Positions 1 to 5,816 of a DNA stretch of 5,816 nucleotides are shown here, piece after piece. Location: the NCBI RefSeq assembly GCF_003334785.1, contig NZ_QOWV01000040.1; one strand, given 5' to 3'. The stretch's first letter is position 1, and every line of letters begins with the position of its first letter. The notes beneath the pieces were generated by a model, which was given only the letters and a program-made list of their open reading frames with translations, was not told where the DNA came from and did not search any database. The position numbers and the translations under genes are program-made. Source of the DNA: Escherichia coli. Its GTDB lineage: Bacteria > Pseudomonadota > Gammaproteobacteria > Enterobacterales > Enterobacteriaceae.

Positions 1-607
<607 letters not shown>

Positions 608-619
608 CAGGAGAACAAC

Positions 620-1717
620 ATGCGTGAAATGAATTTCAGTCAACGGCTGAGGCGTTTCATTGTCAGAAAAACGTTCAGCGCCCCCTACAGGGTGCAGTTT
701 TACGAAGCCCTGCGTTTTCTGATGGAAAATAAACAGCCATTAAAGACCGCACTGGAACAGATGCGGGATGCCTGGACAGACTTTGGACGAAAATGGCATC
801 CCTTTGCTGAACTGGCCACAGACTGCATTGAGTCTCTTCGTGAAAACAGTGGCGAAAATTCTCTGGAATATACTCTTAGTTTATGGGTTCCTCAGGAAGA
901 GGCCGCAGTAATCAGCGCCGGGATAAGAAGTGGTTCAATTGTGGATGCACTGCAATTCGCCACCACTCTTACAGATGCAAAAGAACAAATCCATCAGGCT
1001 ATATGGCAAATGGCTATTTATCCGGTGGGATTGTTAATCATGATGACGGGGACATTATATGTTCTGAATACAGAGCTAATACCTGAACTGAGCAAAATAA
1101 GCTCCCCTGATTCATGGAGTGGTGCTCTTGGTTTTCTTTATGGATTATCTGTTTTTGTCGATAAAAACGGCGCTATATGTGTCGTTCTTTTTGCAGTGAT
1201 CACAGATTTAATATCATGGTCTCTGCCAAACTGGAAAAGCCCTGACAGTGTTCGTACTTTTGCCGACAATATAATGCCATGGAGTATTTATCAGGATATA
1301 CAGGGAGCAACATTTCTCCTGAATATGGCTGCACTTCTGAAAGCCAAAATGACGACGCTCAACTCACTAAACATTCTTCAGGAGTTTGCATCACCATGGT
1401 TAAGCACACGTCTTGACAGCATTATTTACCGCGTCCGCCAGGGGGATCATCTTGGACTGGCTTTGCGTCAGTGCGGTTATCAGTTCCCATCCAGGGAAGC
1501 AGCCAACTTCCTGTCTTTATTACAGGGAGATGGCGCAACAGAGCTAATCAGCAATTATGGTCAACGATGGCTTAGTCAAACACTTCAACGTGTAAAGAAA
1601 CGGGCAAACGTGATTCGTTTAATTATACTGATATTTCTTGTCATGTCTCTCATGTTACTGGTTTTTGCCATTATGGATATTCAGTCTATTAGTGACAACA
1701 GCATGGGTAACTTTTAA
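620..1717 (+). CDS. pilR: Polytopic inner-membrane pilus platform protein, GspF/PilC/TcpE-like (PilR-like)
   Basis: ATG at 620 with AGGAG at 609-613 (6 nt spacer). 365 aa with a soluble N-terminal region and three long hydrophobic segments (AIYPVGLLIMMTGTLYVL, ICVVLFAVITDLISW, VIRLIILIFLVMSLMLLVFAIM). It sits directly after the ATPase and before the prepilin, as in R64 pilQ-pilR-pilS. Confidence 0.7.
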   Translation: MREMNFSQRLRRFIVRKTFSAPYRVQFYEALRFLMENKQPLKTALEQMRDAWTDFGRKWHPFAELATDCIESLRENSGENSLEYTLSLWVPQEEAAVISAGIRSGSIVDALQFATTLTDAKEQIHQAIWQMAIYPVGLLIMMTGTLYVLNTELIPELSKISSPDSWSGALGFLYGLSVFVDKNGAICVVLFAVITDLISWSLPNWKSPDSVRTFADNIMPWSIYQDIQGATFLLNMAALLKAKMTTLNSLNILQEFASPWLSTRLDSIIYRVRQGDHLGLALRQCGYQFPSREAANFLSLLQGDGATELISNYGQRWLSQTLQRVKKRANVIRLIILIFLVMSLMLLVFAIMDIQSISDNSMGNF

Positions 1718-1734
1718 ATAAAACGAGGATATTT

Positions 1735-2349
1735 ATGTTAGTAGAAAATATTAATACCACTTTAACTGGAAATAATAAGAAGAATGAACCTCATGATAAA
1801 GGATGGGCAATTTTGGAGCAGGGAACAATAGCGCTCGTTGTTCTTTTTGTTATAGTCGTTGTTCTGGGTAGTTTGTATGCGTTGCGTACAAGAGCCAATG
1901 TGGCAACTGAAACTGCAAATATACAAACAATTATCACAAGTGCCCAGAGCCTGCTAAAAGGTAGCGATGGATATACATTTACCAGCAGTGCCAAAATGAC
2001 AGGTGACCTCATTCAGATGGGTGCCATTCCCTCTGGGATGACCGTACAGGGCGACAAAACATCTGGTACAGCAACGCTCTATAACGCATGGGGCGGTGCT
2101 GTAACTGTTGCCCCGGCTTCAACATCAGGGTTCAACAACGGTTTTACCGTTACCTATGATAAAGTCCCACAGGATGCCTGTATCCAGATTGCCACACGAA
2201 TCAGTAAAACTGATTTGACTAACGGCATTACCCTGAACAGTACTGCTCACAGTGATGGAAAAGTCACTACTGAAGAAGCCAGTACGCAATGCAAGGCAGA
2301 TAATGGCAGCACTGGTACAAACAAACTTATCTTCACCATCAATGGTTAA
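1735..2349 (+). CDS. pilS: Type IVb prepilin, major pilin subunit (PilS-like)
   Basis: GAGGA at 1725-1729, ATG at 1735. Class III signal: a 23-residue hydrophilic leader ending in Gly (…PHDKG), followed by WAILEQGTIALVVLFVIVVVLGSLYAL, giving Trp at +1, Glu at +5 and a hydrophobic alpha1 helix. Two Cys about 36 residues apart near the C-terminus (DACIQ…TQCKAD) match the pilin D-region disulfide. The mature protein would be about 181 aa. Confidence 0.85.
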   Translation: MLVENINTTLTGNNKKNEPHDKGWAILEQGTIALVVLFVIVVVLGSLYALRTRANVATETANIQTIITSAQSLLKGSDGYTFTSSAKMTGDLIQMGAIPSGMTVQGDKTSGTATLYNAWGGAVTVAPASTSGFNNGFTVTYDKVPQDACIQIATRISKTDLTNGITLNSTAHSDGKVTTEEASTQCKADNGSTGTNKLIFTING

Positions 2350-2358
2350 GGAGTTTTA

Positions 2359-2919
2359 ATGTCAGGGAGTACAATACCCCTCAGACTTATTTTGTTAATC
2401 CTGCTTATTTCTCTTATTTCACCCGCCCGAGCTTCATACGTAGCCCCCAAACAGATCTGGACCAACAAGTGGGACAATTGCTTTGCCGCTGCCGGCGCGC
2501 GCTATCAAATTGAACCATTATTATTGAAGGCCATTTCTGCCGGGGAATCTTCGTTGAGGCCGGGCGCAATTAATATAAATAAGGACAAAAAAACAGGTAA
2601 AGCCAGTAGCACGGATTATGGGCTGATGCAAATAAACTCAACCCATATTCCAAAGCTGATAAATATGGGCGTAATAAAAAAGTCTGAGGATTTAATTACC
2701 AAACCATGCCTTAATATCCATATAGGAAGCTGGATACTGGCAAGACATTTTCAGATATGTGGCGTCAGCTGGAATTGCCTTGGGTCATACAATGCCGGAT
2801 TCCGTAAGGACAGACATGAAACAAGAGAGCAATATGCCAATAAAATATGGAGAATTTATCGTGACATGAAAGGGATATGTCTTCCCGGACAGGGAGGCAG
2901 GAAATGCAGACAATCGTAG
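2359..2919 (+). CDS. pilT: Periplasmic lytic transglycosylase, SLT domain (PilT-like in R64 nomenclature; not the retraction ATPase)
   Basis: AGGAG at 2349-2353, ATG at 2359. Sec signal peptide with ARA/S cleavage motif (…LISPARA-SYV). SLT family motifs in order: catalytic-Glu motif GESS, then DYGLMQIN, then SYNAG. Confidence 0.8.
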   Translation: MSGSTIPLRLILLILLISLISPARASYVAPKQIWTNKWDNCFAAAGARYQIEPLLLKAISAGESSLRPGAININKDKKTGKASSTDYGLMQINSTHIPKLINMGVIKKSEDLITKPCLNIHIGSWILARHFQICGVSWNCLGSYNAGFRKDRHETREQYANKIWRIYRDMKGICLPGQGGRKCRQS

Positions 2920-3560
2920 GCATAAGTCTATCCCCTGTTTATATACTGCCATTGATGTTCACATTTTCCATTATTGGACGAACTCTGCTATTCAGAGTTC
3001 GTTATTTTTTATCTGATACGGGACATCTCTGGTATAAGACACACCCTGCTGTTCTGTCAGGAATATGGCTATACAGTATAGCTGTGGCGTTAATTATTTT
3101 ATCATCATCACCACTGCTCTACCGTATTCATGCTGTCCTTATTCTTTCGTTCATACTGCAAATGGCGGTAACGGATGCACTGACAGGTTTATTACCAGGA
3201 ACATTCACCCGGCGTTTTTTAATTGCAGGAATGCTATCACAAATCACGACTAATATATGGTGGTTCCGTACAACAGAATTTGCCACTGCTGCAATTGTCT
3301 TATTCTGCCTTCATAAATTAGTTAACCGCCATCGTCTTAATATTGGCACTGGAGACCTGTGGCTTATTGCAGGTATTACCGCATGGTCAGGGTTATATAA
3401 CGCCATATGGTGTGTGTTGCTGGGCACAGGAGGATTTGTCTTATGGCATTCAACATGGTGCATAAAAGGGCATAAAGAAGGCCCTCTGGGTCCATGGCTA
3501 TGTTTGGGCCATGTCCTTTTGCTGCTGGATAATCTTTATCAACCACTATGGGTAATCTGA
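2904..3560 (+). CDS. pilU: Prepilin peptidase, A24 family, short form without an N-terminal Cys-rich domain (PilU-like)
   Basis: Polytopic membrane protein. Contains [11 protein letters not shown] (a D…LLP motif like the first catalytic Asp of PilD/TcpJ) and [18 protein letters not shown] (a GxGDxxL…G motif like the second catalytic Asp). I prefer ATG 2904 with GGGAGG at 2892-2897 over the ORF-track start at 2877, which has no well-spaced SD. It overlaps the pilT 3' end. Stop TGA at 3558-3560. Confidence 0.72.
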
Positions 3561-4129
3561 TGAAAAAATATGACCGAGGCTGGGCATCGCTGGAAACTGG
3601 CGCGGCTTTATTGATTGTTATGCTCCTGATTGCCTGGGGAGCGGGCATATGGCAGGACTATATTCAAACAAAAGGATGGCAAACTGAAGCACGTCTTGTC
3701 AGCAACTGGACCAGTGCGGCCCGCTCTTATATAGGGAAAAACTACACGACTCTCCAGGGCAGTAGTACCACAACAACTCCTGCCGTTATCACGACAACCA
3801 TGCTGAAAAATACCGGCTTTTTGTCCAGCGGGTTTACTGAGACAAACAGCGAGGGGCAGCGGTTACAGGCATATGTGGTTCGAAACGCCCAAAACCCGGA
3901 ATTACTACAGGCAATGGTTGTATCCAGTGGTGGCACACCTTATCCAGTGAAAGCACTTATCCAGATGGCTAAGGATATTACCACTGGTCTTGGTGGATAT
4001 ATCCAGGACGGCAAAAAAACTCATCAACGGTCGTCAGATAAACCCGACACCACTGCAGGTCCGTTACCCACAAGGGGTAAGAGAAGTTCTGGGGATAATG
4101 AGCGAACAATTAGCCATATCCACCGCTGA
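3560..4129 (+). CDS. pilV: Minor pilin / pilus-tip adhesin N-terminal module (PilV-like), as encoded in the present frame; it may continue into 4016..4772 (see findings).
   Basis: ATG at 3560 overlaps the pilU stop (TGATG); an alternative ATG lies at 3548. Class III signal: short leader MKKYDRG, then [24 protein letters not shown] with Trp +1 and Glu +5. Thr/Ser/Gly-rich pilin-like body. No Cys in this frame. The last 36 codons before TGA 4127-4129 are low-complexity and Arg-rich. Confidence 0.65.
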
Positions 4130-4772
4130 TTTAACCCGAATCCTGCTTGAGGATGCTCTTCATAATATGTTTATGCCTGCGGATAACACCACAGGAAACA
4201 TAATAAGCAGAATTGAATACATCATGCTGTCGCATGATATAAATGCGCCATTACTGGCAACATTGCTGTCGCCATGGAATATCCGCTCCACGGTTATACA
4301 GGACCCGGCCAGACTTGCAGACTATCTTTCAGCTGACGCTCTCGAACATCTTGCTGAATGTTTTAATCTCAATCCGGACTGGCTGAATGGCCATGAAAAC
4401 TATCCGATAGCGTTGTCCGGTGAATGGCCAGATACTGCTGATAATTTCAGAATGCTTATTAATGATAGCAGCAACACTGAAGTTATTTTCTGGCATAGTT
4501 TCCCCTTCGCAGGAAACACGAAAAGAGAATATTGCGGGGTAATATTGAGACAGAAAAAAGAAATAAATGGTTCTGTAATATATCCGGCACTATCATTATC
4601 ACCAACACTTCTGAACGATGAAAAAAGAAAATGGTTAACTGAATATACAACCAGGCAGAATACAACAATGTCTTTGCGACGCGTCACGTTGAGACCTGGC
4701 CTTGCCGGGAACCTTATTACGGGGAAAACACTACCTGTTAGCTTATTTAATACGTCTTTATTACCCTGGTAA
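4098..4772 (+). CDS. Hypothetical protein with no recognisable motif; alternatively the C-terminal domain of a longer PilV if the frames are joined near 4013-4019.
   Basis: Long open frame (ORF track 3990..4772, TTG start; first ATG at 4098). No signal peptide or transmembrane segment. Looks helical and acidic in the first half ([31 protein letters not shown]), with two Cys (AECF, EYCG). The 3' half is AT-rich. There is no well-spaced Shine-Dalgarno for ATG 4098: GGGGA is 2 nt upstream and AAGGGG about 20 nt upstream. Confidence 0.5.
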
Positions 4773-4857
4773 ATACCAGATAGTACCAAAGTAAAAAATT
4801 ACGGCACATCCGTGTTATAGCGTTGTTTTGTCTAAATTCTGATAAACAGGAAATTAA

Positions 4858-5730
4858 ATGATGAAGAAAAATCATATTACCCGCACCATCATTGCATCTG
4901 CTGTATTATTTTCCTTTAACGCTGCAGCAGCGACGTCATATTTTGAAGCACGTAACGATGCAATGGGGGGCACCGGGGTAGCATCTTCCCATTATGGTGT
5001 GGCACCTCTGGCAAACCCAGCTTTACTGACAAAGCACAACAGCAATGATGATTTCAGCCTTCTTCTGCCGTCTGTCGGGGCACAAGTTGCTGATCCTGAT
5101 GATGTATCAAATAAAGCTGATGATGTTAAAGATGACTGGGATTTGTTTGATAGTGCTGTAGATAACCAGCATGGCGTACAACAGGCAGCAGCAAATCTTA
5201 AACATCGTCTGCAGGAATTCCGCAATATCAATGCAGATGCTCAGGTAGGTGTATCAGCTGTAGCAGCCATGGCAAATGACACTCTGCCGTTTGCCCTTAT
5301 GGTCAAGTCTTACGGAACTGTCAGCGTAAACGGAAAAGTAAACGATGCAGACCTGGATTATCTGGACAAAGTTGCCAATGGAACAATTACCGACGTCGAT
5401 AAGAATGCCCTGACCTCACGCGTATTCGGGCGTGCAGCTGTAATTACCGACGTCGGAATTTCATTTGCCAAAGAACTGGAAACGGCCGGACAAAAATGGT
5501 CTCTTGGCGTCACACCAAAATATCAGCGTGTGGACCTGTTTAACTACAACGTAACGGTTCGTGATTACGACAAAGACGATTTTGGCGGTGACAAGTACCA
5601 CAACACGAAAAACGGATTCAACGCCGATATTGGTGCTTATACAGACCTGAATGACAACTGGACTGTCGGTCTTGTTGCCCAGAACATCATTCCACGCAGT
5701 ATTGACACTAAAGTCGTCAATGGCTTGTAA
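4858..5730 (+). CDS. Secreted outer-membrane protein, putative beta-barrel with a FadL/TodX-like or TraF-like N-terminal signature; possibly truncated.
   Basis: AGGA at 4848-4851, ATG at 4858. Sec signal peptide (MMKKNHITRTIIASAVLFSFNAAAA-TSYF). The mature N-terminus YFEARNDAMGGTGVASS…LANPALL follows the x-E-x(5)-G-x-G-x-A…NPA-L pattern seen at the start of FadL-type barrels. Alternating hydrophobic beta-strand-like segments (WTVGLVAQNII). It ends …VNGL with no terminal aromatic residue. Confidence 0.55.
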   Translation: MMKKNHITRTIIASAVLFSFNAAAATSYFEARNDAMGGTGVASSHYGVAPLANPALLTKHNSNDDFSLLLPSVGAQVADPDDVSNKADDVKDDWDLFDSAVDNQHGVQQAAANLKHRLQEFRNINADAQVGVSAVAAMANDTLPFALMVKSYGTVSVNGKVNDADLDYLDKVANGTITDVDKNALTSRVFGRAAVITDVGISFAKELETAGQKWSLGVTPKYQRVDLFNYNVTVRDYDKDDFGGDKYHNTKNGFNADIGAYTDLNDNWTVGLVAQNIIPRSIDTKVVNGL

Positions 5731-5816
5731 GCGACTCGTCAGAACCGTATTGATATTTACTGAGAGCTCAGATCAACTTTCCAGGGCAACAGATCGCGTA
5801 CCCGGTTTGCCGGCCA

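Follow-up and report, generated by a model that had tools for sequence, protein, structure and literature searches.

The closest described system to the genes considered here is the conjugative thin pilus of the IncI1 plasmids R64 and ColIb-P9, studied by the Komano laboratory, in which a major prepilin (PilS), a lytic transglycosylase (PilT), a prepilin peptidase (PilU) and a tip adhesin (PilV) are encoded in the order pilS-pilT-pilU-pilV. Work on R64 between 1997 and 2005 settled the Gly/Trp cleavage, the dependence of PilS and PilV processing on PilU, and the identity of the catalytic Asp residues. The same gene order is found in the window, by which we mean the whole 5,816-base stretch of Escherichia coli DNA under analysis (contig NZ_QOWV01000040.1). 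Compared with the R64 reference (NC_005014), its PilS is 98% identical, its PilU 99%, and its PilV 100% over residues 1-152, after which PilV diverges; R64 also shares the G23/W24 and G7/W8 sites (a slash marks the cut) and the 218-residue peptidase. Because the proteins are 98-100% identical to those of R64, the feature is known R64 thin-pilus pilin and peptidase biology, already described, and, taking the explanation as a whole, we consider it very likely that the region holds the substrate/enzyme pair of an IncI1 (R64-type) type IVb conjugative thin pilus. Unlike R64, however, the window contains only an operon fragment, with pilQ cut by the insertion sequence (IS) IS100, pilV ending after codon 152 where a deletion of 3052 bp begins, and traF cut by ISCro1. 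Relative to R64 PilU (L003:31215-31871), the peptidase has N117 for D and L201 for F; in a paper on E. coli W, some PilU substitutions severely lower transfer (PMC3032704).

The features on which the comparison turns are as follows, with the evidence for each in parentheses:

1735-2349, plus strand: pilS, type IVb major prepilin of 204 residues (identity to R64, match to 1Q5F, motif scan)
1735-1803, plus strand: leader of PilS, with Gly23 at 1801-1803; Trp24 (+1) follows at 1804-1806 and Glu28 (+5) at 1816-1818
2904-3560, plus strand: pilU, single-module A24 prepilin peptidase of 218 residues (PF01478 alone, identity to R64, structural model)
3174-3176 and 3354-3356, plus strand: codons of the predicted catalytic residues Asp91 (AVTD91ALTGLLP, [11 protein letters not shown]) and Asp151 (GTGD151LWL)
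3560-4016, plus strand: pilV 5' fragment, codons 1-152 of the shufflon tip adhesin/minor prepilin (comparison with R64; RefSeq pseudogene, C-terminus missing)
3578-3580 and 3581-3583, plus strand: PilV Gly7 and Trp8 (+1), with Glu12 at +5

A preliminary description of this DNA had placed a Trp directly after the predicted cut, and a Glu at +5, in both pilins, and this is borne out. PilS runs from MLVEN to HDKG23/W24AILE28 and then into a hydrophobic stretch, and its leader is 23 residues long because no alternative pilS start codon lies upstream or within the leader. PilV, from the RefSeq start at 3560, opens with MKKYDRG7/W8ASLE12 [13 protein letters not shown]. Were translation to begin at the ATG further upstream, at 3548, the PilV leader would gain four residues, to 11, but the start at 3560 is favored because it overlaps pilU in the sequence TGATG and because relatives begin M-[KR]-K-x-D-R-G-W. 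A six-frame scan of the window for G-x4-E followed by a hydrophobic stretch returned four matches; the N-termini of PilS and PilV are the only two of these in which 19-20 of 21 residues are hydrophobic or small. This uniqueness, together with the recurrence of [KR]G/W in six independent loci, argues that the two motifs are not due to chance. PilS thus has the Gly-1, the Glu+5 and the ~20 hydrophobic residues of a class III signal peptide, all kept in its homologs. The remainder of the protein is equally typical of its family: residues 55-204 match the solved PilS of Salmonella Typhi (1Q5F, E=6.4e-46), the globular domain carries a C-terminal Cys pair (Cys149 and Cys186), and homologs carry PF08805, the PilS family. 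No family matching PilS was found in NCBIfam. G/W cleavage of PilS-type pilins is credited to Kim & Komano (1997) in PMC6232867.

PilU has the sequence attributes of peptidase family A24 and lacks the N-terminal module and the Cys motif of the bifunctional, PilD-type members of that family. Its one Pfam match is to PF01478 (Peptidase_A24; i-Evalue 3.7e-07, residues 79-174); PF06750 (A24_N_bact) gave no match even at E<=10, and nothing beside PF01478 was recovered. The protein has Cys at positions 135, 170, 186 and 200 only, with no CxxC, and just four Asp residues (38, 91, 151 and 209). The two Asp motifs and the missing CxxC...CxxC pair are therefore as the preliminary description had them, and the circumstance it named as fatal to its reading, a corrected start further upstream that would expose a Cys-rich domain, does not arise. 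A GGAGG Shine-Dalgarno sequence lies 6 nt before 2904, and the longest possible pilU open reading frame (ORF) begins at 2877, which adds no more than 9 codons, none of them for Cys. An in-frame stop stands four codons before 2877, which rules out a hidden upstream Cys-rich domain.

The same architecture extends across the family. A search of 5.8 billion proteins yielded 73 relatives of PilU, the full-length ones 211-227 residues long and the others fragments; PF01478 is the sole domain in most of them, a few are without any recorded domain, and PF06750 occurs in 0 of the 73. To compare PilU with bifunctional enzymes, we aligned it and six relatives with BfpP (enteropathogenic E. coli, pMAR2), CofP (enterotoxigenic E. 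coli, CFA/III), E. coli PppA, a 289-residue enzyme of Vibrio vulnificus and K-12 GspO, with CofP (of the TCP/CFA-III type), BfpP, PppA and the Vibrio enzyme serving as stand-ins for TcpJ and the PilD of Pseudomonas aeruginosa. All 12 sequences match PF01478. PF06750 is confined to exactly four (BfpP, CofP, PppA and the Vibrio enzyme), and the same four have CxxC-(~21 aa)-CxxC, for example CNNC...CGYC in BfpP and CPHC...CRDC in PppA. D91 and D151 are invariant both here and in an alignment of 50 PilU-family sequences, as is the C-terminal GP motif. The alignment that had been suggested as a check for the methyltransferase region accordingly finds that region absent from PilU.

Structural comparison gives a similar picture. 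An AlphaFold2 model of PilU, built with 50 family members, has eight helices (pLDDT 85.2, pTM 0.81), consistent with the membrane bundle of A24 enzymes, and an H1-H2 loop of ~8 residues, at the position where PilD-type enzymes have their large cytoplasmic zinc-finger loop (PMC10191384). Foldseek searches of AFDB50 with this model returned as best matches PilU-type proteins of 205-230 residues from Salmonella, Yersinia pseudotuberculosis, Y. ruckeri, Dickeya and other hosts. Enzymes annotated as leader peptidase/N-methyltransferase (250-290 residues) mostly align over ~172-182 columns, with the exception of two Rahnella entries that align over ~265-269 columns, gaps included. A Foldseek search of the PDB returned nothing significant (the top match being presenilin/gamma-secretase at E=0.3, with no bacterial prepilin peptidase and no FlaK), a sequence search of the PDB with PilU gave no match, and NCBIfam gave only a spurious weak one.

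What PilU shares with PilD, PppA, BfpP and CofP (A24A enzymes with PF06750) is thus the core: the xxxD...LP, GxGD and GP motifs and the eight-helix bundle. The CxxC-21aa-CxxC cytoplasmic zinc-finger loop and PF06750 are absent from it. A tblastn search of plasmids with BfpP matched 502 records and recovered CofP and other PilD-like enzymes; no IncI1-type PilU was among the matches listed (the best 40 of 502), an outcome that suggests PilU is very distant from PilD-like enzymes. In lacking the Cys4 methylase loop, PilU resembles TadV/FppA of type IVc pili, the archaeal FlaK/PibD, and K-12 GspO; TadV is cited as having no methylase domain (PMC10191384). Peptidase-only members of family A24 form a recognised class. 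PilU differs from these other single-module enzymes in that its pilus is of type IVb, built from large pilins (~180 residues when mature) bearing Trp+1, and in that it retains the first two transmembrane helices (TM1 and TM2). GspO (225 residues; L006:10544-11221), from the 'cryptic' type II secretion system of K-12, has neither CxxC nor PF06750, while PppA (269 residues) has both, so that the host chromosome already encodes an A24 enzyme without the methylase module.

Comparison across more distant loci separates what is constant in this arrangement from what is not. In six loci (L009-L014) whose PilU is 60, 45, 40, 33, 30 and 33% identical to that of the window, the order pilQ-R-S-T-U-V is kept and [KR]G/W occurs in both pilins of all six. 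Among 80 PilS homologs, at least 57 have G/W, a lower bound like the other Trp counts, as the procedure for calling +1 misplaced the cut at another Gly in some of the PilS homologs (a few, e.g., ...MEQG/A). The SPI-7 and Y. pseudotuberculosis-type clusters and other R64-like clusters show the same pilQ-R-S-T-U(-V) order, with a PilU of 212-222 residues and PF01478 only (Y. pseudotuberculosis PilU being among the Foldseek matches noted above), but their pilins depart from the Trp/Trp pairing of the window. In a Salmonella locus (L017; PilU 217 residues), PilS has G/MSADA and PilV G/FVAMS; in L018 (222 residues) both pilins have G/F; and in L019 (212 residues) PilS has G/V and PilV G/I, each with a PF01478-only enzyme. 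The PilU of L017 (6080-6733) does contain a CxxC (Cys199 and Cys202), in a PWLCxGC motif near the C-terminus; this is not the zinc-finger module, because it lies outside the N-terminal loop.

A further cluster, L020 (5001-7970), encodes PilS and PilV with the canonical G/FTLIE and PF07963 (N_methyl), and contains neither a peptidase nor a transglycosylase gene. In their place is a second T2SSE-family ATPase of 320 residues, possibly a retraction ATPase. This arrangement matches that of PAPI-1, where PilS2 is processed by the PilD of the host (PMC3984277). To judge from these loci, a dedicated short peptidase goes with non-canonical N-termini, and canonical N-termini with reliance on a bifunctional host enzyme. 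The notion that methylase loss brings about Trp+1, or goes along with it, was rejected as a strict rule, in that short peptidases are also paired with Met, Phe, Val or Ile. Because relatives with equally short peptidases have these residues at +1, Trp+1 is typical of a lineage and not obligatory.

Two further properties of the pilin N-termini can be read from the same set. The preliminary description had also called attention to the very different leaders, of 23 and 7 residues, of two substrates of one peptidase. Those lengths are correct for the window, but the contrast is unremarkable because lengths vary across relatives (for PilS, 12-23 residues at the six loci, with a maximum of 27 in the wider set of PilS homologs; for PilV, 7-13) and only the [DH][KR]G directly before the cut is constant; as a family feature, the contrast was rejected. 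At +5, PilV has Glu in IncI1 and in the relative at 60%, Asp in those at 45% and 40%, and Ser in the 30-33% relatives and the Salmonella locus, a gradual drift; in PilS of the Trp-type loci Glu+5 is kept. Minor pilins that sit at the tip or initiate the fibre typically lose Glu+5, which fits PilV as a tip adhesin.

These observations suggest how the pair may work. PilU is best read as an A24-family aspartyl protease with eight membrane helices; it keeps the core with Asp91/Asp151 and the first two transmembrane helices, and lacks the ~50-70-residue cytoplasmic Cys4 zinc-finger loop from which PilD-type enzymes derive their S-adenosylmethionine (SAM)-dependent N-methyltransferase activity. It would cut both prepilins at the cytoplasmic face of the membrane, after the Gly of [DH][KR]G, leaving Trp+1 on the major pilin PilS and on the minor pilin/adhesin PilV, with Glu+5 presumably retained for helix packing in the fibre. 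For this copy, the cleavage site and the catalytic roles of the two Asp residues are inferred; for the R64 proteins, 98-99% identical to those of the window, both are established experimentally in the literature. Yoshida and colleagues (1998) reportedly found that processed R64/ColIb-P9 pilin has a modified N-terminal amino group. This N-terminal block of the mature R64 pilin would have to come from an activity or chemistry other than PilU. Given the lack of the methylase module, N-methylation of Trp+1 is almost certainly not carried out by PilU itself.

The literature agrees on the premises of this reading. The Cys4 zinc-finger module (IPR010627) is described as the SAM-dependent N-methylase, with zinc required for methylation and not for cleavage (PMC4471445; PMC10191384), so that the link drawn at the outset between the Cys-rich region of PilD-type enzymes and N-methylation is one that reviews share. 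As cited in these reviews, Akahane (2005) confirmed both Asp residues for R64 PilU (PMC4471445; PMC10191384), and cleavage after Gly-1 by R64 PilU was reported by Akahane (2005) (PMC10191384) and by Kim & Komano (1997) (cited in PMC6232867). The proposal of cleavage without canonical N-methylation thus holds as a sound inference from the absence of the module, while the tie it implied between Trp+1 and loss of the module is not upheld.

Several points weigh against this reading. The review by Pelicic counts TM1 and TM2, which PilU keeps, within the 'methylase domain'. Retention of these helices makes a residual or different transferase activity formally possible. A Cys-less XpsO is said, in work by Pepe and Lory, to methylate still, and this weakens the argument from missing Cys to missing methylation, yet XpsO keeps the rest of the loop and PilU does not. 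In addition, E. coli hosts carry PppA, an enzyme with the module that might in principle operate in trans, and some of the pilins that depend on short PilU-type enzymes begin with a residue other than Trp.

The concern about the host enzyme can be stated as an explanation in its own right, namely that Trp+1 is N-methylated in trans by a bifunctional host enzyme, for which E. coli PppA would be a candidate, either once PilU has cut or in place of cleavage by PilU. The lack of the module in PilU would then be without effect. K-12 PppA, with its CPHC...CRDC, is indeed among the four PF06750-positive sequences, and related clusters without their own peptidase depend on a host PilD. We nevertheless regard this as very unlikely. 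The pilU gene adjoins pilS/pilV in all nine of the PilU-bearing loci examined, and these loci have non-canonical residues from +1 to +5 whereas the peptidase-less cluster has the canonical G/FTLIE, a contrast that suggests different processing rules for the two groups. Moreover, K-12 is regarded as carrying its chromosomal pppA and gsp genes in a cryptic or silent state (by annotation), and no evidence was found for PilD-type enzymes accepting Trp+1. Another possibility is that the N-terminal block is a distinct, non-methyl modification (acylation, for instance, or a change that is spontaneous or specific to Trp), that a further enzyme encoded by the host or among the pil genes makes it, and that Trp+1 has been selected for it. 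Both pilins strictly conserve Trp+1 across PilU lineages as little as 30% identical, which speaks for selection on the residue; the methylase module is absent; the amino group of processed pilin is reportedly modified (Yoshida and colleagues, 1998); and an archaeal precedent exists in a pyroglutamate N-terminus (PMC4471445). We hold this possibility only tentatively and on balance lean away from it. Sister lineages with the same short peptidase have Met, Phe, Val or Ile at +1, so Trp-specific chemistry cannot be general, no candidate transferase is encoded in the window or among the flanking pil genes, and a blocked Edman cycle may be an artefact of preparation. This explanation overlaps with single-module cleavage by PilU more than it competes with it. 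Its fuller form is more doubtful still: that PilU-type type IVb conjugative pilins bear a non-methyl modification on Trp+1, made by an unnamed enzyme or by Trp-specific chemistry, with the Trp/Trp conservation reflecting selection either for that modification or for an S1' pocket of PilU specific to Trp. A literature search found no later work or pilus structure identifying the N-terminal modification of R64 pilin, and no cryo-electron microscopy structure of an IncI thin pilus.

For cleavage by a single-module PilU, the significance of the present locus is therefore modest, and little is added beyond correct annotation. The role of pilin N-methylation is called enigmatic in reviews, and the R64 family offers a natural type IVb system without the methylase module, alongside sister clusters that have no peptidase of their own and keep the canonical methylation motif.

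The real peculiarity of the window is one that the preliminary description missed: it is a decayed operon fragment on a mosaic virulence plasmid. The remaining features, with the evidence for each, are these:

1-76, no strand assigned: end of IS100 (IS21 family), cutting the 5' part of pilQ (no IncI1 match before 77; IS100 istA directly upstream in NZ_AP022179.1)
77-607, plus strand: pilQ 3' fragment, assembly ATPase pseudogene (RefSeq: ATPase, T2SS/T4P/T4SS family, N-terminus missing)
620-1717, plus strand: pilR, GspF-type platform protein, intact ORF of 365 residues (ORF list, RefSeq, GspF/ComGB-like NCBIfam matches)
2359-2919, plus strand: pilT, lytic transglycosylase with SLT domain and signal peptide (RefSeq; IagB-like NCBIfam match, 1.5e-36)
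4015-4016, no strand assigned: deletion junction (blastn against the intact IncI1 locus L002)
3975-4772, plus strand: traE, with a hybrid 5' end made by the deletion (RefSeq coding sequence; the junction falls within traE of the intact plasmid)
4858-5730, plus strand: traF 5' fragment, cut by ISCro1 (RefSeq: TraF C-terminus missing, then ISCro1 transposase; IncI1 match stops at 5730)
5731-5816, no strand assigned: end of an ISCro1 (IS66-family) copy (RefSeq annotation; blastn)

The window is 100% identical to positions 45792-51607, on the reverse strand, of NZ_AP022179.1, which is plasmid pWP7-S17-ESBL-04_2 of E. coli WP7-S17-ESBL-04. About 4,400 plasmid records hold DNA of the window, and it is ~99% identical to hundreds of IncI1 plasmids in two blocks, 77-4016 and 4015-5730. 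By blastn against the intact IncI1 plasmid L002, these blocks correspond to L002 501-4440 and 7493-9207, respectively, so that 3052 bp are gone relative to that plasmid, with a 2-bp overlap (microhomology) at the joint. The deletion took pilV from codon 153 (the adhesin domain), the shufflon segments, rci and the first ~67 nt of traE; in consequence, a full-length shufflon adhesin PilV, with shufflon and rci downstream, is not encoded here. Codon 152 of pilV is joined to the 5' end of traE, and the PilV frame continues through 37 unrelated codons (3560-4129). The hybrid TraE annotated by RefSeq (3975-4772) begins inside pilV.

On the plasmid as a whole, the losses are wider. Annotation identifies NZ_AP022179.1 as a 94-kb, IS-riddled IncFII virulence plasmid, on which none of pilI-pilP (including the PilN secretin), an intact pilQ or rci is found. 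The sole other IncI1 remnant on it is nikAB, and of the IncI tra/trb genes only traE and the traF fragment remain. The intact pil ORFs are pilR, pilS, pilT and pilU; pilQ, which encodes 517 residues when intact in R64, is truncated, as is pilV. The complete pil gene set of a functional R64-type thin-pilus system, which from the title of Yoshida (1999), 'twelve pil genes', would be pilK-pilV, is thus wanting. The pil genes of the window are, by gene content, a relic unable to build a pilus by themselves, because pilQ and pilV are truncated and pilI-pilP and rci are absent.

It is likely that the ORFs on this plasmid are accordingly non-functional, and that their features are inherited and uninformative about current function. 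In addition to the truncations and missing genes, the nature of the carrier, an IS-rich IncFII virulence plasmid with eatA, a type VI secretion system (T6SS) and CS-type fimbriae, speaks for this. On the other hand, pilR, pilS, pilT and pilU are still intact ORFs, 98-99% identical to those of R64, and PilU, provided it is transcribed, could still cut PilS, or it could act for an IncI plasmid in the same cell. Since such decay concerns context, it is compatible with the assignment of these proteins as an R64-type pilin/peptidase pair. For annotation, it matters that this copy is a decayed remnant, not to be taken for a working conjugation pilus.

Some smaller observations complete the description. 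The pil/tra fragment is flanked by IS100 (in pilQ) and ISCro1 (in traF), and the plasmid that carries it bears, besides eatA, a chaperone-usher operon for the CS-type fimbriae, a nearly complete T6SS cluster in which tssM is frameshifted, and many IS copies. Within the fragment itself, pilT and pilU overlap by 16 nt (2904-2919), and the pilU stop and pilV start overlap in TGATG (3558-3562), the same one-base overlap being found in the relative L009; these overlaps suggest translational coupling along pilT-pilU-pilV.

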